NCBI GenBank assembly: GCA_964588165.1
Contig: CAZPMS010000006.1
Span: 3,425 to 67,424 of the forward strand
Length of the DNA: 64,000 nt
Reading direction: 5' to 3'
Source: an uncultured Gammaproteobacteria bacterium
GTDB taxonomy: Bacteria; Patescibacteriota; Patescibacteriia; UBA1558; UBA10009
This document shows positions 7,274 to 49,156 of the stretch, in pieces (position 1 is the stretch's first letter; each line of letters opens with the position of its first letter). The notes beneath the pieces were generated by a model that was not told where the DNA came from, did no database searches, and saw only the letters and a program-made list of their open reading frames with translations. Position numbers and translations under genes: made by a program.

Positions 7274-7312
7274 ATCTGCGGGTAATCTGGCGGGTAATCT
7301 GTGTTATCTGCG
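7274..7312 (+). repeat. phased heptamer array A (ATCTGCG, ATCTGGC, ATCTGTG, ATCTGCG)
   Basis: Heptamers start at 7274, 7285, 7297 and 7306 (spacing 11, 12, 9). The array ends 7 nt before TTGACA at 7319. Confidence 0.75.
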
Positions 7313-7318
7313 ACAGCA

Positions 7319-7347
7319 TTGACAAACCTGCTATTTTATGATAAGCT
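7319..7347 (+). promoter_or_regulatory. sigma70-type promoter of islet ORF 2
   Basis: TTGACA (7319-7324), N17, TAAGCT preceded by TG (extended -10-like). The leader contains CAACAAAAC-ATAGAGAGG before the ATG at 7397. Confidence 0.55.
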
Positions 7348-7396
7348 GATTTATTAAATTCTTTAACAACACCAACAAAACATAGAGAGGTCTACC

Positions 7397-8260
7397 ATGA
7401 GAAGAAGGTGGATAAAAATTGACGGTACTGATACCGTTATCCGCGGTAAAACGGTAACTTTGAATTTAGAGTTACCGAGTGAATTCCAAAACGTTCACAG
7501 TCGTGATTTGGTGATAAACTGTGATGAAGGAAATGTACTGATTTGTGAAAGGGATGGTATTCACATCGCACCGACCATTGAAGTTTTTCCTGATACTCCT
7601 GATGTTCTTACTTTGGAAGTTAAGGGTAAGCTCATTCATCAACCAACAACAAGGACTGATTCTGCAAAGGAAACCGGCAGAGGAGATCCTTACAAAGTTG
7701 GCGAGCCACAGGTGGAACCGATTTTCGCCGATCCTGATCCGGAAGCTGAAGAAGAAGCAGAACTGGAACAGATTGGTGAAAGAATTACTATCACCCAAGA
7801 AATGCCGGTATACGAAACCACTGAAATCCATCACTTTGAGGCTGAAGAAAATTATTCTGCACGCTTTACTTTCAGGGTGATTGATTCTCGGCCGCTGATC
7901 AAACGTAACGAACTCACTGAGCTTCGGTTTGAGCTACCTGATGGTTTCGGCAAAATCAATGAACATCATCTACCAAAGATTTTGGGAAAGGGCGCCTACG
8001 TTACCGAGTGGCAACAGATAGGCCAAGCCTTAACTGTTTCGGTGAAGACCAAAAAGTCTTCACCCGAGGAAATTACTCTGCGGGTTCGCGGCATGTGTGA
8101 AGGCGAACATACTGAGGAATTCTTCAAAATTGATGTAGAGCCGGAAACTGAAAAGGTTAAGAGAAAAACTCTTATAGCCTTGGCAATACTTCTGCTGATA
8201 GCTGCCAGCTTTGTTTCGGGCATATACATTTCTACTCTTTTCCCTCTGTTATTTCAGTAG
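7397..8260 (+). CDS. hypothetical tail-anchored protein with two beta-rich repeats and an acidic linker (GC-rich islet ORF 2)
   Basis: 287 aa. Internal repeat (..LTLEVKGK.. / ..ITLRVRGM..), DPDPEAEEEAELEQ linker and a single C-terminal TM helix. High G+C. SD GAGAGG. Confidence 0.6.
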   Translation: MRRRWIKIDGTDTVIRGKTVTLNLELPSEFQNVHSRDLVINCDEGNVLICERDGIHIAPTIEVFPDTPDVLTLEVKGKLIHQPTTRTDSAKETGRGDPYKVGEPQVEPIFADPDPEAEEEAELEQIGERITITQEMPVYETTEIHHFEAEENYSARFTFRVIDSRPLIKRNELTELRFELPDGFGKINEHHLPKILGKGAYVTEWQQIGQALTVSVKTKKSSPEEITLRVRGMCEGEHTEEFFKIDVEPETEKVKRKTLIALAILLLIAASFVSGIYISTLFPLLFQ

Positions 8261-8277: not shown

Positions 8278-8311
8278 CCGTCGGTTAACACTAATAACCG
8301 GCGGTTTTTTA
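8278..8311 (+). terminator. Rho-independent terminator of islet ORF 2
   Basis: CCGTCGGTTA / TAACCGGCGG stem followed by TTTTTT. Confidence 0.7.
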
Positions 8312-8359
8312 TTTAAAAAAACTTAAAAATAAAAAATAGTAGATAGATATCCGCGGACT

Positions 8360-8409
8360 ATCAGTGATTAATCAGTGATCGTTCCGCGAATATCAGTGAA
8401 TTATCTATG
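8360..8409 (+). repeat. phased heptamer array B (ATCAGTG x3, ATCTATG)
   Basis: Heptamers start at 8360, 8371, 8392 and 8403 (spacing 11, 21, 11). The array ends 7 nt before TTGACA at 8416. Confidence 0.7.
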
Positions 8410-8415
8410 AAAAAC

Positions 8416-8444
8416 TTGACAAAATCAATAAATTATGCTAAATT
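8416..8444 (+). promoter_or_regulatory. sigma70-type promoter of islet ORF 3
   Basis: TTGACA (8416-8421), N17, TAAATT (8439-8444). The leader has the palindrome AATGTTgttgAACATT (8456-8471), ACATAGACAAAAC, and SD AAAGGAG. Confidence 0.65.
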
Positions 8445-8515
8445 ACAATGTTAAAAATGTTGTTGAACATTGACAAAAAAACGCTAAACATAGACAAAAC
8501 AAAGGAGTACTGAAA

Positions 8516-10882
8516 ATGGCTACCACCGCAAAAGAAGTAGCTGGCGCAGCCACTGCTACCTCAGCTGCCGCAGCCAGAGAACAATTCCGTTTGGAACTGT
8601 GGCAAGTTTTCCGCGACATTCTTATCGGCAAAGACAAGTGGGTTGATGAAGTTGCCAGAACCCATTACGAAAACCAATTCAAGGAACAGTTTTCGGAGAA
8701 ATACGACCTACTTCTGAAAATGCTTCATCCCGACAACCTAAGTACTACCGACCAGCATTGCCTGGATATGGTGGCCTTGGAACATGCCAAGTTGGCCGAT
8801 AAATCTTTGCACGAAAAGGATACGGCTAAGCTCATACCAGGGATGTTTAAAATCTTCTGCGACAAGTTGGAAGAAGTTATTGACTTGGCTACCGAAGGTG
8901 ATGAGTTTGACGTCATCAAAGCGCACACACTGCTCCGGGACAAACGCTGGATCGGTCAGGGCTTCTGGGCTCAAAGGCTAAAGGAAAACATGGGTGAAAT
9001 TCTCAAGCTGGGTTGGATTTCTGAAGGCCTGAGAAGATTTATCCAATCTCCTATCGTTCATGACTTCATGGAAGGAGCTGAACAGCCTTCCATCGATTTC
9101 TTTGAATGGGCCCAGCAGCATTACAACCTCGCAGCCAAAATACGCAGCGGAGCACCCAGTAATCGCCGTTACAGCAACAACCCCTTCAAAAACTTTTTTG
9201 TAGGGCTGCAGTTGATGATTGGTGTTGCTTGGAACTATCTGATGGTAGGCTTGGGCAAGGTGAACAAGTTAAGGCAACAGAATTGGCACAGGATTGGCAA
9301 AAGGACCTTCTGGACAACCATAATTGTTCTGGGTGTGGTCATTGCTTTCCTGATACTGCTGGGATTAGGAATCCACAACAGCTACTTCAAAAGTACCAAC
9401 TACCTTTGGCTTATTGCGACTGCTGGAATTCTACTGTTCATCATCTTTGCTACACTCAAGATTATTGAGGCTGCACTGGGATTGGCCATCTTCACGGTAC
9501 GCTTGGCTTTTGCTGTTATAGCTAGGCCGTCCCTCTGGACCGTTGAACAAGGCGGTAAGTTTATCTGGCAAGTTGGTACTTGGCCAATTGAATTTGGCTT
9601 TGACGCTATAACCGACACCTTTAAGGGGCTATTAATGTTCTTAGGGGTTGATATTGAGGACATTGAACGGTTAAGCGACAGAAAATTCGAACTGACTGAA
9701 GCTCAGAAATCTGCTTGGGGAGATTTAAGTAAACGAACAGAAGACTTGATGAAAGGCGCCCGCCAAACCAGTATTTTCATCACTGTCGGCTTCAAGTATT
9801 TTGCGGCGCTGATAACTTCCACTTCTTTCCTGATCTTGGCCAAATGGCAGTTTTCTGGCGTAGACTCCAGTGCGGTTTTGAACAATCCGGTTTTTGCTCT
9901 GCTGATTCTTTTCCTGCTGGGCTCGCTTTTCACCCATTTTGGAATCCGTGAATATCAGGCAAGAATTGCTAAAGCTACCGGCTTAGATGACAAAAAGCGC
10001 TCCTGGCGAACAGTTAACCGGATTGCTTTTGCTTGCCTTGTTCTGCTGATTCTGGCTGAATGGCGATTTGAAACCGTCACTAACGTCTGGTACTACAATG
10101 CCAGGCAATCAGCAGCCATAACCGAACACGCAAACCAAGAAAGGAGGCTTAAAACTGCGATTTGGGAAAAAAATCGCAGTGCAACAATTCATCGTGGAGC
10201 AACTGTATTTTTGGCAGAAACCGATACAGAAAACGATGATGAGTCTTACATCGTCATAACCGACTCAACTTTCAGCCGGCCAAATCCGAATGTGGTTTAT
10301 GTGGTAAAACCTGCCCTTGAGCAAAACGGCCAGGTATTTACTATCTACAACCCCATTGACCAAAATGGCATCAGGCAAGCAAGCCTGCAATACGCTGTTT
10401 TGGCTCAATATCTGGATCAGGTTACTCCAAACGAGGCAGCCCGCTTGCTGGCTACCAAAACTGAGGCAAAGCCATCATTAATGCCTAGCTCCATTACTTA
10501 CAATCCGAGCAAAGGCATGGCAGTGCTTGGGTATGTTAACACCGATGATGTTCTTTATCTGGATCCTGTCCAACTGTCACTACTTAGCTGTCCTGAAGAA
10601 AGCGATATTGGACTGAAAGGTACCCATGGTACACCGCGTAGCCGCCATGAAGATTGGCCTGAAGAATTCGTTGATCAGCGCATGCGGCTTGGCGCCCTGT
10701 TGGTGAAATTACCAGCTTATGGTTGGCAACCTTTGTACCAAGCCGAGTCATTCAACATCCGTGGCAGCGGAACAGCCATGGTCTGCGTTAATACGCGGCG
10801 TGGGCTTTTTGGCCTTAACGAAGGAGGAATGGTAGATATTGCTATCAGGCTGGAAACCTATGCCGAAATGGCACAACGTTAA
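8516..10882 (+). CDS. hypothetical polytopic membrane protein, 788 aa (GC-rich islet ORF 3)
   Basis: Long uninterrupted ORF at roughly 45-60% G+C in sampled stretches. Soluble N-terminal ~270 aa, ~8 hydrophobic helices, soluble C-terminal ~250 aa. No family recognised. Confidence 0.65.
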   Translation: MATTAKEVAGAATATSAAAAREQFRLELWQVFRDILIGKDKWVDEVARTHYENQFKEQFSEKYDLLLKMLHPDNLSTTDQHCLDMVALEHAKLADKSLHEKDTAKLIPGMFKIFCDKLEEVIDLATEGDEFDVIKAHTLLRDKRWIGQGFWAQRLKENMGEILKLGWISEGLRRFIQSPIVHDFMEGAEQPSIDFFEWAQQHYNLAAKIRSGAPSNRRYSNNPFKNFFVGLQLMIGVAWNYLMVGLGKVNKLRQQNWHRIGKRTFWTTIIVLGVVIAFLILLGLGIHNSYFKSTNYLWLIATAGILLFIIFATLKIIEAALGLAIFTVRLAFAVIARPSLWTVEQGGKFIWQVGTWPIEFGFDAITDTFKGLLMFLGVDIEDIERLSDRKFELTEAQKSAWGDLSKRTEDLMKGARQTSIFITVGFKYFAALITSTSFLILAKWQFSGVDSSAVLNNPVFALLILFLLGSLFTHFGIREYQARIAKATGLDDKKRSWRTVNRIAFACLVLLILAEWRFETVTNVWYYNARQSAAITEHANQERRLKTAIWEKNRSATIHRGATVFLAETDTENDDESYIVITDSTFSRPNPNVVYVVKPALEQNGQVFTIYNPIDQNGIRQASLQYAVLAQYLDQVTPNEAARLLATKTEAKPSLMPSSITYNPSKGMAVLGYVNTDDVLYLDPVQLSLLSCPEESDIGLKGTHGTPRSRHEDWPEEFVDQRMRLGALLVKLPAYGWQPLYQAESFNIRGSGTAMVCVNTRRGLFGLNEGGMVDIAIRLETYAEMAQR

Positions 10883-10892
10883 CAACAAACAA

Positions 10893-10932
10893 CCCCTTAT
10901 CATTTTTTCAAAATGATAAGGGGTTTTCTTTT
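10893..10932 (+). terminator. strong Rho-independent terminator of islet ORF 3
   Basis: 14-bp perfect stem CCCCTTATCATTTT / AAAATGATAAGGGG followed by TTTTCTTTT. Confidence 0.85.
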
Positions 10933-12149: not shown

Positions 12150-14084
12150 TTATTTATCTTCCTTGTCATCCGAAGAGGATGATTCCTTTACTTCTTCAAC
12201 TTCTGCTTCCACAGGTTCGTCTTTCTTTTCTTCTGATTGGTTTTCTTGACCTTCCTGACCTTCAGTTGGCTGTGCCTGCTCTTGCTGTTGTTTATACATG
12301 CTTTCACCAATTTTCTGGACAGTCTGGTTCATATCTTCCAAAGCCTTGTTAATAACTTCAGCATCTTCGCCATCTTTAACCTTTTTTAAGGCATCCATTT
12401 TTTCGGTTACTTCGGTTTTTACATCTTCCGGAACCTTATCAGCTGATTCCTTAAGTAGTTTTTCTGTTTGGAAGATTACTGAATCGGCATTGTTTTTAGC
12501 ATCAATTAAATCCTTTTTCTTTTTATCATCATCAGCATGAAGTTCAGCATCCTTTTTCATCTTTTCTACTTCATCTTTAGAAAGTCCGGATGAAGCGGTA
12601 ATGGTAATTGACTGTTCTTTACCTGTGGCTTTATCTTGCGCCTTAACGCTTAAAATGCCGTTGGCATCTATATCAAAGGTAACTTCCACTTGAGGAACGC
12701 CCCTTGGTGCCGGCGGAATTCCGGAAAGGATAAATCTGCCTAAAGTTTTATTATCTTGGGCCATTTCTCTTTCGCCCTGTAAAACATTAATTTCTACTGA
12801 TGACTGGTTATCGGCCGCAGTAGAAAAAATTTGTGTTTTAGAAGTTGGGATGGTGGTATTCTTTTCTATTAACGGAGTCCTTACGCCACCTAAGGTTTCT
12901 AAGCCTAGAGTTAAAGGAGTTACATCCAATAACAGCACATCTTTAACATCGCCTTGCAAAACACCAGCCTGGACTGCAGCTCCAAGTGCTACTACCTCGT
13001 CTGGATTAACTGAAATATTTGGCTTTTTGCCAAAATATTCCTCTACCTTCTTTAATACTAAAGGCATTCTGGTCATGCCGCCAACTAAAATTATTTCGTC
13101 TATATCTTCTTTTTTAAAGCCGGAATCTTTTATTGCTAATTCAACCGCTTTAAACGATTGTTCAACTAACTCTGTAGTTAACTCATCAAGTTTAGCTCTG
13201 GTTAATTTCATTACCAAATGTTTTGGCCCTGCCTGATCGGTTGTTATAAACGGCTGATTAATTTCAGTTTCAGTGGAAGTAGAAAGTTCTACCTTGGCTT
13301 TTTCTGCGGCTTCTTTAACTCTTTGCATGGCCATGGCGTCACCGGTTAAATCTATACCCTGGTCTTTTTTGAATTCAGCAATAATCCAGTTAATAACCTT
13401 CTGGTCAAAGTCATCACCACCTAAATGAGTATCGCCATTGGTGGATTTAACTTCTACAGTATCTTCAGAAACATCTAAAATAGAAATATCAAAAGTTCCG
13501 CCGCCAAGGTCATAAACTGCCAGCTGCTGATTTTTCTTTTTATCAAAACCATAAGCCAAAGCAGCGGCTGTTGGTTCATTAACAATACGCTTTACTTTAA
13601 AACCGGCAATTTCTCCTGCATCCTTTGTGGCTTGACGCTGTGAATCGCTAAAATAAGCCGGTACGGTAATAATGGCTTCTTCAATTTTTTCACCCAGTTT
13701 CTCTTCAGCATCAGCTTTTAGCTTCTGCAAAATCATGGCCGAAATTTCTTGGGGCGTATATTCCTTATCTCCCATTTTAACTTTAACGCCAGCACCTGAT
13801 TTGACGATTTTATAAGGCATGGTTTTAATGTCGTCTTGGACTTCTTTATCTTCAAACTTTCGTCCAATTAAACGTTTTATGGAAAACAAAGTACTTTCCG
13901 GATTGGTGACGGCTTGCCTTTTAGCCAGTTGGCCGGCTAACCTTTCGTTGGTTTTGGAAACAGCCACCATAGATGGGGTGGTTCTGTTGCCTTCTTTGTT
14001 TTCTAATATTTTTGGCTGTCCGCCTTCCATAACAGCCATGGCTGAATTTGTTGTTCCTAGATCAATACCTAATATTTTTGGCAT
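12150..14084 (-). CDS. dnaK: molecular chaperone DnaK (Hsp70)
   Basis: 644 aa. [17 protein letters not shown] and the full Hsp70 architecture, with an acidic C-terminal tail. Confidence 0.97.
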
Positions 14085-14181
14085 ATTTTTATTATTAATT
14101 ATTAATAATTGATGATTAATGACTTATGATCATACTTATAATTAATTGATCATAAATCATAGTCCATAAATTAATTTCAAT

Positions 14182-14229
14182 ATCTGCGAATAATCTGCGC
14201 GTCATCTGTGACCAATCTGCGTATCTCTT
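14182..14229 (+). repeat. phased heptamer array C (ATCTGCG, ATCTGCG, ATCTGTG, ATCTGCG, degenerate ATCTCTT)
   Basis: Heptamers start at 14182, 14193, 14204 and 14215 (exact 11-bp spacing), then 14223. Lies between the divergent dnaK start (14084) and TTGACA at 14238. Confidence 0.8.
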
Positions 14230-14237
14230 ATTAACTA

Positions 14238-14266
14238 TTGACAAATCCTGTAACTGTTGTTAAATT
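14238..14266 (+). promoter_or_regulatory. sigma70-type promoter of islet ORF 4
   Basis: TTGACA (14238-14243), N17, TAAATT (14261-14266). The leader has the palindrome TTGAAatgTTCAA (14270-14282), CAACAAAAC, and SD AAGGAG. Confidence 0.7.
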
Positions 14267-14306
14267 AACTTGAAATGTTCAACAAAACTTAACAAGGAGA
14301 TATCTG

Positions 14307-14762
14307 ATGGACCAGCATGTATTTACTTTGAAAGGACGCTTCTGGTGCCTTGGAGGCCTTAGCGTTCATAGGGCTTTATTAAGGCCAGCTGACTACCTGC
14401 AAGATCCTAGGCCGACTCTGGGCGAAATGACCAAGGCATTCTTTAACCTGATGCATCTGAAACTTGGCAGGCTCGAACTTCCTATCCAAAAGGGTGGCCA
14501 TGGAGAAATCTGGATTTTTTATCCTAATGGATCTGGATTTAAAATTGAATTCAGGGAAGGGAAATTATGCCTCATCCGTTTTGGCAAATTCAGTGATGAT
14601 AGTCTGGATGTAAAATATCATGAAAATATTCTCGCCAAAATACCAATAGGCTCCCTGCCTCCAGAAGCAATAAAACAAGATTTTGTGCTTGACAATGGAA
14701 TGATACTGAATCACGATTCAATATCTCAACTAGGAACTGTCTTTACTGGCCTAGCCGCCTAA
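14307..14762 (+). CDS. hypothetical protein (GC-rich islet ORF 4)
   Basis: 151 aa. Higher G+C than the flanks, with SD AAGGAG 7 nt upstream. No family recognised. Confidence 0.55.
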   Translation: MDQHVFTLKGRFWCLGGLSVHRALLRPADYLQDPRPTLGEMTKAFFNLMHLKLGRLELPIQKGGHGEIWIFYPNGSGFKIEFREGKLCLIRFGKFSDDSLDVKYHENILAKIPIGSLPPEAIKQDFVLDNGMILNHDSISQLGTVFTGLAA

Positions 14763-14778
14763 AGTACATTTTCATCCC

Positions 14779-14810
14779 AATGAAGAGTTTAACCGCTCTT
14801 CATTTTTTTT
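14779..14810 (+). terminator. Rho-independent terminator of islet ORF 4
   Basis: AATGAAGAG / CTCTTCATT stem followed by TTTTTTT. Confidence 0.75.
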
Positions 14811-14812
14811 CC

Positions 14813-15148
14813 TTAAAATCCTTTCAATTTTTCTATAAAAGAACTATCTTTATTAATTAACTGATGAATCTCTAAAACATTATCAGAAATAATTTCTGGC
14901 TCCAATGTATAATCCATAACTTCTATTGCTGAAAGATCTGTTAAAATTGCATTGCCGATTAAACCGTGCGGCATGGTCATAACCCTTACAATAATACTGG
15001 AAGAACAGTGGCCACAGGTTAAATATGCCAAAAAGCCTTGTTCGTTTTCATCCAATATTTCAATCTTGCCTTCGGTATAATCATGGTTGCAAACCGGGCA
15101 TTTTTGAACCAATTTCAAACTAAATTGTCCTTTTTGACTGTTATTCAT
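14813..15148 (-). CDS. hypothetical zinc-ribbon protein
   Basis: 111 aa with CPVCNH...CGHC cysteine pairs. Native AT-rich style. Sits in the heat-shock cluster. Confidence 0.5.
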   Translation of the reverse strand: MNNSQKGQFSLKLVQKCPVCNHDYTEGKIEILDENEQGFLAYLTCGHCSSSIIVRVMTMPHGLIGNAILTDLSAIEVMDYTLEPEIISDNVLEIHQLINKDSSFIEKLKGF

Positions 15149-15152
15149 TTAT

Positions 15153-15584
15153 TTATTTCTTATTTTTCTTTTTAATTTCCACTTTAACGCTTTTTGGTTT
15201 TAATTTCTCTTGTTTTGGAATACTTATCTTTAAAATACCGTCTTCATATTCTGCCTTGGCCTTATCACCGCTAACTGAAACAGGCAAAGCCACGCTCCTA
15301 TGGAATGAACCGGTTCTGACTTCTTTTCTATAATAACTTTTATCATCAATTTCAGTCTTTTTTTCAATTTTACCATCCATGGTCAAAATATCATTTTCTA
15401 CCGTGATATTTACATCCTCTGGCTTAACTCCTACAAGTGGCGCTTCTACTATTAAATTTTTTTCATCTTGATAAATATCCAAAGATGGTGCAAAACCACT
15501 CTGTCTGTTACCAGGAAAATTGGTTATAAATTTGTCCATTTCATCAAATGGTTCAAAGAATGGACTCCATCTTATTAATGTCAT
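15153..15584 (-). CDS. small heat-shock protein, Hsp20/alpha-crystallin family
   Basis: 143 aa. Alpha-crystallin domain pattern (DIYQDEKNLIVEAPLVGVKPEDVNITVEND..LPV..A.YEDGILKISIPK). Confidence 0.9.
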   Translation of the reverse strand: MTLIRWSPFFEPFDEMDKFITNFPGNRQSGFAPSLDIYQDEKNLIVEAPLVGVKPEDVNITVENDILTMDGKIEKKTEIDDKSYYRKEVRTGSFHRSVALPVSVSGDKAKAEYEDGILKISIPKQEKLKPKSVKVEIKKKNKK

Positions 15585-15602
15585 AGGATTATTAACTATT
15601 AA

Positions 15603-16106
15603 TTATTTTTTTGAAACGATAACTTGGGCTGGCTGTAAAACACTATCCTTTATTTTGTAGCCAGACTTTATCTCTTTAATTATGATATTATCAGTTTGAT
15701 CTGACTCTTCCTGGCCAACTGCCTCATGAAATTCGGGATTAAATTCTTCTCCCACTGTTTTTATCTCTTCAATAGCAAACCTTTTTAAAAATTGATCAAA
15801 TTCAGCTCTAATATGTCCAAGACCCTCTAACCATTCTTGGTCTGACTTTTCTTTAGGTTGATGGTTTAAGGCTAATTTAAAATGGTCATAAATTGTTAAA
15901 ACTTCCAATATAATTCCGGCGGTAGAATATTCAACCAGATCTTTTACTTTTTTATCTGATTCTTTTTTTAGATTTTCATAATCTGCCTGAGCTCTTTTCC
16001 AGCCATTTAAATATTCTTCACATTTAGACTGAAGCTCCTCAACTTTATCCTGATCCTTGTTTATGGATCCTTGTTTATGAATTTTATTTTTTTTTGTCTT
16101 TTCCAT
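15603..16106 (-). CDS. grpE: nucleotide exchange factor GrpE
   Basis: 167 aa. Coiled-coil N-terminus, RAQADYENLKK and a C-terminal beta domain typical of GrpE. Confidence 0.9.
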   Translation of the reverse strand: MEKTKKNKIHKQGSINKDQDKVEELQSKCEEYLNGWKRAQADYENLKKESDKKVKDLVEYSTAGIILEVLTIYDHFKLALNHQPKEKSDQEWLEGLGHIRAEFDQFLKRFAIEEIKTVGEEFNPEFHEAVGQEESDQTDNIIIKEIKSGYKIKDSVLQPAQVIVSKK

Positions 16107-16114
16107 TTTACCAA

Positions 16115-16804
16115 TTACTTATTACTAGTCACTAAATTAATTAAACCTAAATTTTTCTCATAATCCATTCTTATGGGCCCCAGGATTCCTAAAAGGCCAG
16201 TTTGCTTATTTAATTGCCATCTGCCTATAACACTGCTGCAATCTTGCCCAAAAGGATTTTCGGAACCTATCAATACTTGGGTTTGGCTAATGTCTTCAAA
16301 AATATCGGAAACTACTTGTTCTAAATGGTCAATTATTAAACTAATATTATAAACCATCTCTGTTTGTTTAAATTCCGGCTGCGAAAATAAGTTAGAAATG
16401 CCGGTATAATATATATTACTGTCTGAGAAAGCCACAATCACGGCATTATTGGAAAACTCAGCCATTTTTTTAGCAATTGACTTTATTGACTGTTCAACTG
16501 ACTCTTTTTTAAAAATATTAATTATTTTTTGAATTTCTTTTTGCTCGGTTGAATTTATTTTGCCATCCTTAATATGATTTTCTAAAAAATACTTGTAGCC
16601 TTTTTCGGTAGGAATTCTGCCGGCCGAAGTATGTGGCTGGATAATATAACCCTCTTTTTCTAAATCAGCCATTTCGTTCCTAATGGTAGCTGAAGAAACT
16701 CCCAGTTTGGATTTATCTTCCAATAATTTTGAACCTACCGGGCTGGCTTGTTTAATATACTGTTTAATTATTTGGCTAAGTAAAGCCTTTTTTCTCTCTT
16801 CCAT
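16115..16804 (-). CDS. hrcA: heat-inducible transcription repressor HrcA (short form)
   Basis: N-terminal wHTH PVGSKLL...SSATIRNEMADLEKEGYIIQPHTSAGRIPT. A CIRCE operator lies immediately upstream. Confidence 0.8.
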   Translation of the reverse strand: MEERKKALLSQIIKQYIKQASPVGSKLLEDKSKLGVSSATIRNEMADLEKEGYIIQPHTSAGRIPTEKGYKYFLENHIKDGKINSTEQKEIQKIINIFKKESVEQSIKSIAKKMAEFSNNAVIVAFSDSNIYYTGISNLFSQPEFKQTEMVYNISLIIDHLEQVVSDIFEDISQTQVLIGSENPFGQDCSSVIGRWQLNKQTGLLGILGPIRMDYEKNLGLINLVTSNK

Positions 16805-16819
16805 AGACTTGAGAATTAA

Positions 16820-16846
16820 CTAGCACTCAAGCCATATGAGTGCTAA
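16820..16846 (-). promoter_or_regulatory. CIRCE operator (HrcA binding site)
   Basis: Minus strand TTAGCACTC-N9-GAGTGCTAG. Matches the consensus TTAGCACTC-N9-GAGTGCTAA at 17/18 positions. Confidence 0.9.
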
Positions 16847-16849
16847 ATT

Positions 16850-16877
16850 AGTATAACATTTTAAAAAAGAGTGTCAA
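16850..16877 (-). promoter_or_regulatory. sigma70-type promoter of hrcA-grpE
   Basis: Minus strand TTGACA (16877-16872), N16, TATACT (16855-16850), directly abutting CIRCE. The -35 is embedded in the palindrome AGAGTGTTGACACTCT. Confidence 0.7.
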
Positions 16878-29581: not shown

Positions 29582-30061
29582 TTATACTTTTAATTTTTCT
29601 TTCACTTTATTTACAACATCTTCTAATTTCCAGTCGCTTTTAATTAAATAATCATAGGCGCCACTTTCTAACATTTCAGCAATCTTTTCCCTATCATTTA
29701 AAACTGTTAATACTATTACCTGGACTTTACTACCCCATGTATCTTTTCTTAATTCCTTTAACATCTTTACTCCGTTCATCTTCGGCATAATAATATCTAA
29801 CAAGATAATATCAGGATGCTCTTTAAATGCAATTTCTAACCCTTCCTGGCCGTTTTTTGCCTGAAAAACCCCGAAGCCGTCAATCTTTGGCATAACCAGA
29901 TCTAAAAAAAGCAAATCAAACTTTTCACTTTTTAACAAATTTAATATTTCTTCACCATTATAAGCAACTTTTACATCAAAACCGGCACTTTTTAGTTTTA
30001 ATTCCAAAGCTTTAGCCATGGGCTTTTCATCTTCTCCTATTAAAATTTTCTTATTTGGCAT
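29582..30061 (-). CDS. response-regulator receiver (REC) protein with an internal ~33-aa duplication
   Basis: ILIGEDE..., then two successive phosphoacceptor blocks: AYNGEEILNLLKSEKFDLLFLDLVMPKIDG and AKNGQEGLEIAFKEHPDIILLDIIMPKMNG. No output domain. Confidence 0.8.
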   Translation of the reverse strand: MPNKKILIGEDEKPMAKALELKLKSAGFDVKVAYNGEEILNLLKSEKFDLLFLDLVMPKIDGFGVFQAKNGQEGLEIAFKEHPDIILLDIIMPKMNGVKMLKELRKDTWGSKVQVIVLTVLNDREKIAEMLESGAYDYLIKSDWKLEDVVNKVKEKLKV

Positions 30062-41064: not shown

Positions 41065-41123
41065 ATCTGCGGAATATCTGCGTGTCATCTGCGCCTGCCC
41101 GCCTATTGCGGGGTCAATCTGCG
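41065..41123 (+). repeat. phased heptamer array D (ATCTGCG x4) interrupted by a GC hairpin
   Basis: ATCTGCG at 41065, 41076, 41087 and 41117 (spacing 11, 11, 30). The CCCGC-CTATT-GCGGG hairpin lies between them. The array is 17-75 nt upstream of the minus-strand start at 41048. Confidence 0.75.
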
Positions 41124-41429
41124 TTATCTTTTTCCCTTTTTAAATTGAAAACTTTTTTGTTCGCCTAATAACTTTTTAGCAATTAAACGACCTTTAGGTG
41201 TTAGGCTTACTTCTTTAATAAACCACTTATGCTGAGTTCTTTGGCCATAACCGACCATTAAACCCTTATCAATTAATCTATCTATGCTTTTTGAAATTAT
41301 TTTAACCTGTTCTAATTTTGATGGAGTTTTTTTGCCGTTGTAATATTTATGGTAACGGCTGCGTAAAATCTTATTCCTTTGCCCAAAACTTTCTTTAAGT
41401 ATAAATTTTTGTAGGGCTGAAAGCTTCAT
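41124..41429 (-). CDS. hypothetical small basic protein (possible wHTH)
   Basis: 101 aa, Lys/Arg-rich. ATGA overlap with the upstream HD gene. Confidence 0.45.
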   Translation of the reverse strand: MKLSALQKFILKESFGQRNKILRSRYHKYYNGKKTPSKLEQVKIISKSIDRLIDKGLMVGYGQRTQHKWFIKEVSLTPKGRLIAKKLLGEQKSFQFKKGKR

Positions 41430-45652: not shown

Positions 45653-45681
45653 TTGACTAAACTAAGTTAACGTGTAAAAAT
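45653..45681 (+). promoter_or_regulatory. candidate promoter of islet ORF 5
   Basis: TTGACT (45653-45658) with TGtAAAAAT about 15-17 nt downstream. A second TTGACT lies at 45624. Weaker than the other islet promoters. Confidence 0.4.
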
Positions 45682-45736
45682 ATCCCTATTGTACATTACA
45701 AAACATACATCGTTTAACTAGCTGGAGATTAGAACC

Positions 45737-46354
45737 ATGAAGAAAGTTTTTGGAGTCTTAGCCGTTCTTTTATGCTTTCTGCTGTTGGTAGCTACCTTTG
45801 CCTTCCCATTCTGGAACGATAATCGGTTGGCCGTCAAAGAGCGCAGCGAAGCCATTGTAGCTGCTCAGGAATTCACCGTTGAAGGCCAATTGCTGGCTAC
45901 CGTTCACTATTCACTGGAAGGTATTGAAACCAAGGGAGAATTTAACCAGACTTTCATTGAACTGGTAAACCAACAAATTCCCTCCTACAACGACGCCGGC
46001 CAACGGCTGATAACCTATTGCTATATAGCCGGCCAAGAATCGTCTTCACAGCAAGAAATCTTATTGGCCAAACAGAACCTTAAGCCTTGCCAGAATTCGA
46101 TTATGATATTTTTGGCAAATTCCGAAGGGAAAACAAATTGCTACTTGATTATTGATAATTATTGGTCGAGCAACATGCCTGCAATTATGGGAATGTTTAT
46201 GAAGCCGAATACTGGACCGCTAACAGAGACTTTTACAGCTTTGATGATTGGCGCAACAATAAAAATTCCTTCAACTGTTTTATTGACCGGTGGCTGGATT
46301 CCCAATAACCTGGTGTATTTCTCCGATGAACAAATCCCTTATTTAACCAGTTAA
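45737..46354 (+). CDS. hypothetical secreted/anchored protein (GC-rich islet ORF 5)
   Basis: 205 aa. N-terminal signal/anchor MKKVFGVLAVLLCFLLLVATFAF. SD GGAG. Higher G+C than the flanks. Confidence 0.55.
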   Translation: MKKVFGVLAVLLCFLLLVATFAFPFWNDNRLAVKERSEAIVAAQEFTVEGQLLATVHYSLEGIETKGEFNQTFIELVNQQIPSYNDAGQRLITYCYIAGQESSSQQEILLAKQNLKPCQNSIMIFLANSEGKTNCYLIIDNYWSSNMPAIMGMFMKPNTGPLTETFTALMIGATIKIPSTVLLTGGWIPNNLVYFSDEQIPYLTS

Positions 46355-46682: not shown

Positions 46683-47096
46683 ATGAGGTATCCGAACTCT
46701 TTTCTGAAGAATGGTCCGCTTTATGTGGTCATTCTAGCTGCTCTCGTTTTCGTAACGGGGTTTGTTCAGTACAACAGCGACAGCCATCACTTCAGCATTC
46801 AGCACGAAACTTTCGTCGCAGGCGACAACCAGGCCTCATTGATCGGCTACACAGTTGCTGATCTGGAAAATTATGGGCAACGTTACCTTGAAGCCAAGTA
46901 TCCTGGGACATCCCAACTGCCACGCTTCGTAAACGTGGCATTAGGAATGATACCTGTACTACTTCTTCCACCAAACATTTTTTGGTCGCCAGCAATCATT
47001 CTTACATTTATGCTATGCGGAATCTGCGGAATATTGCTTACCGGAATAATTTCTAACCGCAATATGAATTGCCTCAAACCAACTTTATCACAATAA
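46683..47096 (+). CDS. hypothetical membrane protein (GC-rich islet ORF 6)
   Basis: 137 aa from the ATG at 46683, with SD GAGGGA (the track starts at GTG 46671). About 3 TM helices. Higher G+C. Confidence 0.5.
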   Translation: MRYPNSFLKNGPLYVVILAALVFVTGFVQYNSDSHHFSIQHETFVAGDNQASLIGYTVADLENYGQRYLEAKYPGTSQLPRFVNVALGMIPVLLLPPNIFWSPAIILTFMLCGICGILLTGIISNRNMNCLKPTLSQ

Positions 47097-47854: not shown

Positions 47855-47936
47855 ATCTGTGAGTAATCCCTACCTTCCGGCAGGCAGGCGTGGGTCATCT
47901 GGTGGGTAATCAGTAAATATCTGTGACTTATCCGTG
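47855..47936 (+). repeat. phased heptamer array E (ATCTGTG, ATCTGGT, ATCAGTA, ATCTGTG, ATCCGTG) with a GC hairpin insert
   Basis: Heptamers start at 47855, 47897, 47909, 47919 and 47930. The hairpin CCTACCTTCCGGCAGGCAGG lies at ~47868-47887. The array abuts TTGACC at 47937. Confidence 0.65.
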
Positions 47937-47965
47937 TTGACCCTATTTTAACAGATTTAACTATA
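47937..47965 (+). promoter_or_regulatory. candidate promoter facing element F copy 2
   Basis: TTGACC (47937-47942), N17-19, ACTATA/TATATA. No plus-strand ORF follows. Confidence 0.4.
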
Positions 47966-47985
47966 TAAAACTAATTTTTTCACAT

Positions 47986-48077
47986 ATAACACGAATGCTC
48001 GCTATTCTTTTACAGATTACACACTAATCCGTGCGCTATTAGTGTTTTATCCGTAAGCAACAGTGTTATTAGTTATT
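47986..48077 (+). repeat. noncoding element F, copy 2 (possible sRNA or cis element)
   Basis: Homologous to 2404-2497 (see that feature). Lies between candidate promoter E and the islet-7 terminator. Confidence 0.55.
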
Positions 48078-48087
48078 TACGCATAAA

Positions 48088-48122
48088 TGAAAAAGCCACC
48101 CATTATAGAGATATGAGCGGCT
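48088..48122 (-). terminator. Rho-independent terminator of islet ORF 7
   Basis: Minus strand AGCCGC...GUGGCU stem followed by UUUUUC. Confidence 0.6.
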
Positions 48123-48150
48123 TATTATGTTCTTCTTTTGAGTTGACGTT

Positions 48151-48645
48151 TTACTTTTTCAGCTTCTTGCCGAAGCCTTCATTGTCAAGAAATGTGAGCG
48201 CTTCAATCCAGAGAATGGCCTTAGCCATTTCTTGTGCGACACACTTCACGTTTCGACCACCAGGACCGTAAGTGAATTTACTGACACCCAGCGGGTATTG
48301 AGTACTGAAAGAGGCAATAATACCCTCAGTCATTTTCTGTTTTCCGCTGGTCTCGATAATTTGAGTTACGATTGGCCACTTAAAGTCATCACGGGTATGG
48401 TTGGATACCACTGCCCCGACTACCATCCCAAGGTTCCAGTTGACATCGCGTAGATGATCAAGCCCTTTGCCCTCAGCAAGCCACTCGTTGACCACCGTTT
48501 TTACTATTGGCCAGCTCCATTGCCAGCAACCAACTCCCACCAGAAGCAAATCACGATTGTCATGTACTCGAATGCCAGCCTTAGAAAACTTTATAAAGTT
48601 TTCTTTTAAAGCCCTTTCCTCTCGATTCTTCTCTTTGAAAGTCAT
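48151..48645 (-). CDS. hypothetical protein (GC-rich islet ORF 7)
   Basis: 164 aa, preceded by AGGAGGAG 3 nt upstream... of the ATG. Higher G+C. No family recognised. Confidence 0.55.
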   Translation of the reverse strand: MTFKEKNREERALKENFIKFSKAGIRVHDNRDLLLVGVGCWQWSWPIVKTVVNEWLAEGKGLDHLRDVNWNLGMVVGAVVSNHTRDDFKWPIVTQIIETSGKQKMTEGIIASFSTQYPLGVSKFTYGPGGRNVKCVAQEMAKAILWIEALTFLDNEGFGKKLKK

Positions 48646-48703: not shown

Positions 48704-48732
48704 AATGTAACATATTTTTATATTTATGTCAA
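48704..48732 (-). promoter_or_regulatory. sigma70-type promoter of islet ORF 7
   Basis: Minus strand TTGACA (48732-48727), N17, TACATT (48709-48704). Confidence 0.65.
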
Positions 48733-48977: not shown

Positions 48978-49003
48978 ATAAAAAACCCGCCGAACTTGGC
49001 GGG
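48978..49003 (-). terminator. Rho-independent terminator downstream of the GerMN lipoprotein gene
   Basis: Minus strand CCCGCCAAGTTCGGCGGG followed by TTTTTTAT. Confidence 0.7.
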
Positions 49004-49156
49004 ATTATTACTTTTTACTAAATAACAACTCACCAAGTTCTAAACCGGTTATTATTGTTTAAATTGTTGTCTTTTCTTAACATATTAATAATTTATCAGA
49101 TTTAATCTATTTGTCAACTCTTCCTAGTTACTAATTACCAGTTACTAATTACCAAC

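Follow-up and report, generated by a model that had tools for sequence, protein, structure and literature searches.

Three plus-strand genes of a patescibacterial chromosome (islets 2, 3 and 4) are preceded by control regions that look alike, and the question raised by this locus is whether the likeness reflects a common descent of the three regions or a common regulator acting on them. A sequence-only reading of the same DNA had proposed "a common origin or regulon", and the two halves of this proposal fared differently in our analysis: the regulon fits what was found (repeat arrays in one register, an extended -10 promoter, and a leader with ACAAAAC and a Shine-Dalgarno (SD) site in all three islets), while a common origin is unsupported. 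The shared control architecture is compatible with a common regulon, the plausible half of the first reading, and perhaps also with a common kind of donor. Patescibacteria are not culturable alone, and gene control in the group is almost unknown. The interpretation that we favour, and to which we give about an even chance of being correct, is that islets 2-4 constitute three distinct transcription units, of a single gene each, which share signals and not descent and are controlled by one protein that binds the arrays. In what follows, the window is the whole 64-kb stretch of DNA analysed; the survey of arrays covered this window together with 17 kb of flanking DNA (81 kb in total).

The islet genes and their setting

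The window is a segment of a low-GC (~35%) chromosome from a Patescibacteria (Parcubacteria-type) bacterium with a tiny genome, and its minus strand carries nearly all of the genes. Its Pfam content includes dnaK/dnaJ, hrcA-grpE-hsp20, ScpA/B, AsnRS/AspRS, the purine pathway and a TraG-like ATPase. The contigs that encode the exact proteins of the window all belong to the same strain (at least 99.96% identity) and, the strain itself aside, the nearest genomes reach a protein identity of only 57-72%. An IS1595-family transposase and a P63C-domain gene are located ~1.5-3.7 kb to the left of the window (contig L181, 13358-15472), with further small SD-bearing orphan genes nearby.

Islet 2 (7397-8260, plus strand) encodes an orphan protein of 287 aa that has a hydrophobic anchor at its C-terminus (GC 0.43), islet 3 (8516-10882, plus strand) a protein of 788 aa from a rare family, which by its sequence is a multi-pass membrane protein (GC 0.47), and islet 4 (14307-14762, plus strand) an orphan of 151 aa (GC 0.43). 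An intrinsic terminator is present at the end of each islet: at 8278-8314 (plus strand, directly upstream of array 2) for islet 2, at 10891-10925 for islet 3 (a bidirectional hairpin that also closes dnaJ) and at 14779-14804 for islet 4. No homologue of the islet 2 and islet 4 proteins was found among 5.8e9 proteins, islet 3 has 18 distant relatives among 1.84e9 representatives, and none of the three proteins has a Pfam domain. A phage origin of islet 3 was rejected, since no relative was found in IMG/VR or among GenBank phages. Islet 4 is wedged between the hrcA-grpE-hsp20-X genes and dnaK-dnaJ, so that the heat-shock cluster (14085-16877; hrcA-grpE-hsp20 and a gene for a 111-aa protein) is split from dnaK-dnaJ by an oppositely oriented orphan. 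In this cluster, hrcA has a CIRCE element (16820-16846) together with a consensus promoter, and no CIRCE element was seen upstream of dnaK.

The islets are compositionally foreign or orphan genes. Their GC content is 0.42-0.47, compared with 0.352±0.038 for the native minus-strand genes, and the orphans at 45737 (a fourth plus-strand orphan ORF, 45737-46354, 205 aa), 46683, 786 and 48151 are equally GC-rich. The use of SD sites follows a similar division: these sites precede five of six plus-strand genes against 8 of 56 minus-strand genes (Fisher 0.001), and all seven GC-rich orphans against 6 of the 55 other genes.

Phased heptamer arrays at the islet promoters

Upstream of each islet promoter there is an array of direct heptamer repeats with the consensus ATCWGYG and an 11-bp period. 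Array 1 (7274-7312, plus strand), which precedes the islet 2 promoter, contains four ATCTGYG-type heptamers (at 7274, 7285, 7297 and 7306). Array 2 (8349-8409, plus strand), at islet 3, contains six units (ATCCGCG, ATCAGTG, ATCAGTG, a degenerate tTCCGCG, ATCAGTG and ATCTATG), and TCCGCG-type units can be seen inside it at 8349-8357 and 8382-8390. Array 3 (14182-14232, plus strand), at islet 4, is the most regular, with four exact heptamers at exact 11-bp spacing (14182, 14193, 14204 and 14215) and a degenerate fifth unit in the same phase. Considering 29 heptamer units, the spacing is 9-12 bp (mode 11); there is almost no variation in ATC, G5 and G7, T predominates over A or C at position 4, position 6 is a pyrimidine, and the 4-nt spacers are variable.

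The arrays are far more frequent than chance would predict: a simple array finder detected five in the window (every one of them on the plus strand), where 0.06 would be expected from a shuffled window, and ATCTG-N6-ATCTG occurs six times against 0.05 expected. Counted from the first base of the -35 hexamer, the heptamers start 45, 34, 22 and 13 bp before the -35 box of islet 2, 67, 56, 45, 34, 24 and 13 bp before that of islet 3, and 56, 45, 34, 23 and 12 bp before that of islet 4. Since these starts coincide at 12-13, 22-24, 34, 45 and 56 bp, the three arrays share one helical phase, for which the chance probability is about 0.008. Including guaB, which lies beyond the window, arrays stand co-oriented upstream of four of seven plus-strand genes and of none of 66 minus-strand genes.

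Known elements did not account for the heptamers. The window, the array loci and the region after array 5 gave no Rfam match, a literature search on the heptamers found nothing relevant, and a DnaA box, CIRCE, IHF site or pho-box were each rejected because of a mismatch to the consensus (in a comparison by eye).

Arrays elsewhere and intergenic repeats

The register seen at the three islet promoters is not found at the remaining arrays. Array 4 (41065-41123, plus strand) consists of three phased ATCTGCG units, a GC-rich hairpin and a fourth unit, and is placed between two co-directional minus-strand genes with no promoter. Array 5 (47857-47936, plus strand) has degenerate units and a GC-rich insert, is followed by a TTGACC at 47937 in a different register (offset by about 6 bp), and has no plus-strand ORF downstream. 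A sixth array is found ~7.7 kb beyond the right edge of the window (contig L180, 907-945, minus strand of that contig and plus strand of the window); its four ATCTGYG units stop 2 nt short of the guaB ATG, with no room for a promoter in between, and this geometry suggests repression there. The guaB gene (IMPDH) is native, with a housekeeping function, and one of the few genes on this strand.

Some further sequences occur around these arrays. The GC-rich inserts of arrays 4 (41094-41116) and 5 (47868-47896) are 20-27 nt long and, on the minus strand, both begin with CAGAT(T)GACCC. Downstream of array 5 (47937-48150, plus strand), the promoter-like TTGACC is followed by ~200 nt with no ORF, containing a hairpin (ACACTAAT...ATTAGTGT) and then TTTT near 48030-48055; this region could be a small RNA.

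Two other Patescibacteria metagenome-assembled genomes carry the same arrays. In one of them (L081), the arrays stand back to back and contain both ATCTGYG and ATCAGTG units; downstream of one arm come TTTCAA-N16-TATAAT and a gene for a glycosyltransferase, and the other arm adjoins the end of the gene before it. In the other (L070), an array lies between the convergent genes glnA and htrA. Four related genomes, represented by ~95 kb of syntenic DNA, gave no ATCTGYG-type array.

These data define a serious rival to a regulon, namely that the arrays are intergenic repeats of a selfish or structural nature (REP/MITE-like, or produced by replication slippage) that settle near gene boundaries and whose position at three promoters is incidental. 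We consider this unlikely on balance, and the arguments on its behalf are substantial: relative to a related contig (L130, 72% protein identity), array 4 amounts to 59 nt cleanly inserted directly behind a stop codon; arrays 4 and 5 are interrupted by GC-rich hairpin inserts and lack a gene on which they could act; arrays lie between convergent genes in L070 and L081; and all six arrays in the 81 kb are on one strand (P≈0.03), a placement that could reflect replication rather than transcription. Moreover, of the relatives that have no arrays, one has other GC-rich short repeats; a second family (TTCGCGAA, GTTCGCG/CGCGAAC, GTCAGCG) is present in the guaA-guaB spacer of the genome studied here (L180, 1081-1160) and in an intergenic region of a relative (L130, 5240-5340). 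Phased triplets with an 11-bp period are also common in viral contigs for any heptamer (15 for ATCTGYG, 25 and 3 for permuted heptamers). With six intergenic copies in 81 kb, the arrays are multi-copy as REP/MITE elements are, and the insertion of array 4, together with the array-free relatives, fits a fast-turnover repeat as well as an operator.

Against such repeats stands, in the first place, the identical register to the -35 box at three promoters, and in the second place the combination of conserved heptamers with free spacers, which is a signature of protein recognition and not of copying. In addition, the arrays are co-oriented with the downstream gene in four of six cases in this genome, and they are direct repeats with no hairpin potential (z-scores of the DNA folds of -0.96 and +1.10; only array 4 has a 5-bp hairpin, in its insert), lacking the palindromic or terminal-inverted-repeat structure of REP/MITE elements.

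A broader alternative, which we regard as improbable, is that the ATCTGYG arrays are the Patescibacteria version of a gene-boundary element found across phyla and read by one conserved factor. In a scan of the genome collection for three phased ATCTGYG units, an element of ~33 nt (ATCTGYG-TTCA/TTTC-ATCTGYG-TTTC-ATCTGYG-GCTAAA) accounted for at least 55 of the 124 arrays listed, with Verrucomicrobiota, Planctomycetota, Acidobacteriota and others as hosts among the matches listed (L001-L120); examples are L017 2183-2212 (minus strand), L018 4377-4471, L037 234-263 and L126/L129. The spacers of this element are conserved as well. It often stands 10-19 nt before start codons (of fabG-like genes, gatB and ABC ATPases) or abuts a convergent gene at its stop codon, sometimes in inverted or back-to-back pairs, and some genomes add an upstream array of three TCCTGC units. 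Neither an Rfam family nor a paper was found for this element. The argument for a cross-phylum identity is that its geometry is the same as that of the guaB array and of array 4. On the other hand, the idea that the matches prove a universal element is weakened by the viral contigs, in which permuted heptamers give similar phased-triplet counts (15 against 25 and 3), and the sharing of the heptamer across phyla may for this reason be a coincidence. A metagenome scan for an array combined with TTGACA returned four matches, all of the other-phylum type with a chance TTGACA.

Promoters and the question of a common cassette

The three islet promoters are TTGACA-N14-TGaTAAGCT (islet 2, 7319-7347), TTGACA-N14-TGcTAAATT (islet 3, 8416-8444) and TTGACA-N14-TGtTAAATT (islet 4, 14238-14266), all on the plus strand and with an extended -10 box. 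This is the general sigma-70 consensus of the organism and is not specific to the islets. The pattern TTGACA-N16/17-TGnTAnnnT has nine perfect intergenic copies in the window (and more in the flanks), including those of hrcA (with its CIRCE operator), of the genes at 1750-2283, 786-1319, 48151-48645 and 46683-47096, and of a small unit at 49117; a perfect consensus promoter is also present at genes with no array. The small unit (48985-49117, minus strand) is itself a tiny stand-alone one, in which a perfect TTGACA-N13-TGaTAAATT promoter is followed by ~100 nt (a 16-codon ORF or an sRNA) and a strong terminator (CCCGCCAAGTTCGGCGGG and a T-run).

The sequence-only reading had taken the three regions for homologous promoter-leader cassettes, suggestive of a module that is reused or travels together with its gene. 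The precedent for such a process are the PeSL promoter-terminator cassettes, which shuffle orphan genes in T4-like phages (PMC2839356), and the islets resemble them: they are small orphan genes, and each lies between a strong promoter of sigma-70-like type and a stem-loop terminator. A PeSL-like cassette (the promoter-leader region with or without the array), duplicated or travelling with its gene, would also accord with the terminator of islet 2 lying directly before array 2 and the islet 3 promoter, with the splitting of the heat-shock gene cluster by islet 4, and with leader words that are common beyond chance even when the fourth orphan (45737) is included. Furthermore, some distant promoters are nearly identical, spacer included: 8416-8444 and 1459-1487 agree at 24 of 29 positions, and 48704-48732 (minus strand) and L181 ~13600-13660 (minus strand) at 25 of 29. 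The flanks of these pairs are unrelated, which suggests that their A/T-rich spacer is strongly constrained in the promoters of this organism.

The pattern of identity between the modules did not bear this proposal out, and we give it little credence. When the three modules are anchored on the -35 box, identity is 0.69-0.83 at the heptamer, -35, TG and -10 positions and 0.28-0.45 elsewhere, against a random value of 0.27. Such a contrast, with high identity at the signals and near-random identity in between, is the signature of shared protein-binding signals and not of a recent cassette duplication, nor does background identity outside the signals support a recently copied or mobile cassette. 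In PeSLs, the sequence is conserved enough to recombine, and they belong to phages and not to a cellular chromosome; in the islets, the longest run common to the promoter regions (TTGACAAA, 8 nt) is too short for recombination, and the promoter spacers are no more alike from islet to islet (6-7 of 14 positions) than when an islet promoter is compared with a non-islet one (3-11 of 14). Among the contigs recovered, which are all of one strain, the islets show no polymorphism for insertion or deletion. The islets also differ in the spacers of both arrays and promoters and in the length of the arrays, the leader words vary in order and in distance from the -10 box (+16 to +50), the same type of promoter serves native genes such as hrcA, one array (41065) has neither a promoter nor a gene, and another abuts the start codon of guaB.

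Leaders: shared words in an unstructured context

The leader of islet 2 (7348-7396, plus strand) is CAA/ACA-rich and contains ACAAAAC (7375-7381), AAACATAGA (7378-7386) and the SD site GAGAGG (7385-7390). In the islet 3 leader (8445-8515, plus strand) we find TGTTGAACA (8461-8469), repeats of AACATTGACAAAA and AACATAGACAAAA (8466 and 8487), ACAAAAC (8494-8500) and the SD site AAGGAG (8502-8507), and in that of islet 4 (14267-14306, plus strand) TGTTCAACA (14276-14284), ACAAAAC (14282-14288) and AAGGAG (14294-14299). A fourth leader of the same type, with a TTGACT promoter and no array, precedes the orphan ORF at 45737, a gene outside the set of the first reading (45653-45736, plus strand; ACAAAACATA at 45698-45707, SD site GGAG at 45724-45727). 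The exact 10-mer ACAAAACATA has just two occurrences, at 7375 and 45698.

Most of the shared elements listed in the sequence-only reading are present where it had placed them: CAACAAAAC at 7373-7381 and 14280-14288, GACAAAAC at 8493-8500, ACATAGA at 7380-7386 and 8488-8494, and an SD site after these motifs in each of the three leaders. The palindrome that it had described around a 9-mer is weak: ATGTTCAAC is found at 14275-14283, its counterpart GTTGAACAT is at 8462-8470 and not, as given, at 8461-8469 (a shift of one position), and the palindrome amounts to a core, TGTTNAACA, with 4-bp arms, imperfect in islet 2. This core occurs five times in the window against 1.6 expected, a number reached in 3 of 100 shuffles.

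Taken one at a time, the leader motifs are marginal. In dinucleotide shuffles of the leaders, the ACAAAAC 7-mer common to the three has P=0.024, the shared 9-mers P=0.044 (islets 2 and 3) and P=0.018 (islets 2 and 4), and a 12-mer inverted match between islets 3 and 4 (TTGTTGAACATT) P=0.004. Taken together, the resemblance persists under correction for the AT-rich background: summed over the pairs of islet 2-4 leaders, 20 6-mers are shared against 7.0±3.2 in dinucleotide shuffles (P=0.0025), and when the leader of 45737 is added the number rises to 34 against 10.3±3.9, a value reached in none of 2000 shuffles. A MAFFT alignment of the three regions, which the earlier reading had described as homologous, places its conserved columns in the array and promoter; in the leaders, such columns are only scattered. 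The absence of a collinear alignment, together with word sharing above that of shuffles, indicates that the likeness of the leaders lies in shared short words and not in a homologous block. The leaders do not exceed shuffled sequences in structure (z-scores of their folds between -1.6 and +1.9) and no fold common to them was found; in each of the four predicted folds ACAAAAC stays unpaired, and the leader RNA matches no Rfam family.

The least probable of the alternatives, and one that we would put well down the list, is that the resemblance is nothing but low-complexity A/C-rich sequence on a C-rich strand, followed by an SD site, with no specific function or shared factor: it draws on the marginal single motifs (P 0.02-0.04), on one-mismatch versions of the words that are at background in the window, on the fourfold excess of ACAAAAC on the plus strand (16 against 4 occurrences) and on the lack of a common RNA fold and of a collinear alignment, but the dinucleotide-preserving shuffles still give P≈0.003 (P<0.0005 with the fourth leader), pairs of islet leaders share 3-8 6-mers where most pairs with other leaders share 0-4 (maximum 7), and ACAAAAC is present in positions -50 to -1 of four of six plus-strand genes (about 0.07 expected from its plus-strand density) and of none of 57 minus-strand genes (Fisher 2.5e-5, post hoc).

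A shared-signal model for the three islets

In the interpretation that we favour, each islet would be a unit made of four parts: (i) the ordinary sigma-70 extended -10 promoter of the organism; (ii) four to six direct ATCWGYG heptamers with variable 4-nt spacers, presented on one face of the helix at approximately -42 to -100 from the predicted start site; (iii) a predicted unstructured, G-poor and CAA/ACA-rich leader (with ACAAAAC and related words) ending in a canonical SD site; and (iv) an intrinsic terminator. The resemblance between islets would then arise from a sigma factor, an array-binding protein and a style of translation-initiation region that the three have in common. The putative protein would bind the array head-to-tail and cooperatively, with one monomer per helical turn, in a SARP/OmpR/PhoB-like manner, and could contact the RNA polymerase at the -35 region or through the alpha-CTD, leading to co-regulation of the three islet genes. 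Where an array stands between promoter and ATG, as at guaB, the same protein may act as a roadblock. The CA-rich leader and its SD site would constitute an unstructured ribosome-loading region, apparently typical of foreign-type genes and missing from most native ones, and this combination could be used as a marker for recently acquired genes in Patescibacteria genomes.

Several observations count against this shared-operator model. Two arrays (41065 and 47857) lack a co-oriented gene, and in L070 and L081 one array is directed into the 3' end of a convergent gene; the insertion of array 4, the array-free relatives and the placement of all six arrays on one strand weigh on the same side. The promoters are near-consensus, so that there seems to be no need for an upstream activator; no functional coherence is seen in the putative regulon (three orphans and guaB); and no OmpR/SARP-type DNA-binding domain or other candidate regulator was found among the ~65 proteins of the window, in which the regulator search returned only a stand-alone receiver domain (29582-30061).

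The gene next to array 4 (41124-41429, minus strand) encodes a basic protein of 101 aa with no Pfam match, even at E≤1. It belongs to a Patescibacteria-wide family (84 relatives found, with source labels of Patescibacteria, Parcubacteria, Uhrbacteria or Veblenbacteria) with the fixed synteny AsnRS/AspRS-X-YbaK-like-ScpA-ScpB. As the obvious candidate for a binder of the arrays it was rejected, because the synteny of the family is kept in relatives in which ~95 kb around it have no arrays.

Comparison with known control regions

CA-rich or (CAA)n sequences, such as the TMV omega leader and CA multimers, act as translational enhancers, and the islet leaders are likewise G-poor, unstructured and ACA/CAA-rich upstream of the ribosome-binding site. 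They differ in that their words are short, with no fixed order or spacing, and any enhancer-like function of these leaders is putative. For the arrays, one possible parallel is with operators of the ribbon-helix-helix or MraZ type. The heptads of the omega protein (WATCACW) are contiguous, with a 7-bp period, the 11-bp iterons of ParR are plasmid centromeres, and MraZ boxes are confined to the dcw promoter. These systems share with the model proposed for the islets the cooperative coating of short direct-repeat arrays near promoters, and WATCACW is superficially similar to ATCAGTG, but either the period or the location differs and no protein of these types is linked to ATCWGYG arrays.

There is a close likeness in architecture to the operators of SARP/OmpR/PhoB regulators (PimR, ActII-ORF4, pho boxes). 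The islet arrays differ from these in that the heptamer ATCWGYG is unrelated in sequence, the arrays are longer (4-6 units), the promoters already match the consensus, ATCWGYG arrays also occur with no promoter or directly against a start codon, and no cognate winged-helix (Trans_reg_C) regulator was found among the ~65 proteins of the window. [quoted passage not shown] The islet arrays have the same layout: direct heptamers with poorly conserved 4-nt spacers and an 11-bp period, three or more units turned to the same side of the helix, adjacent to the -35 box and, as in PimR, upstream of it. The islet control region is, in this sense, a further case of a familiar type, now from a phylum that has not been studied in this respect. 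If our interpretation is true, a phased operator array linked to strong promoters, at orphan genes whose products are probably surface or membrane proteins, would be a first handle on a Patescibacteria regulon, with the array DNA as a concrete bait for finding its regulator.
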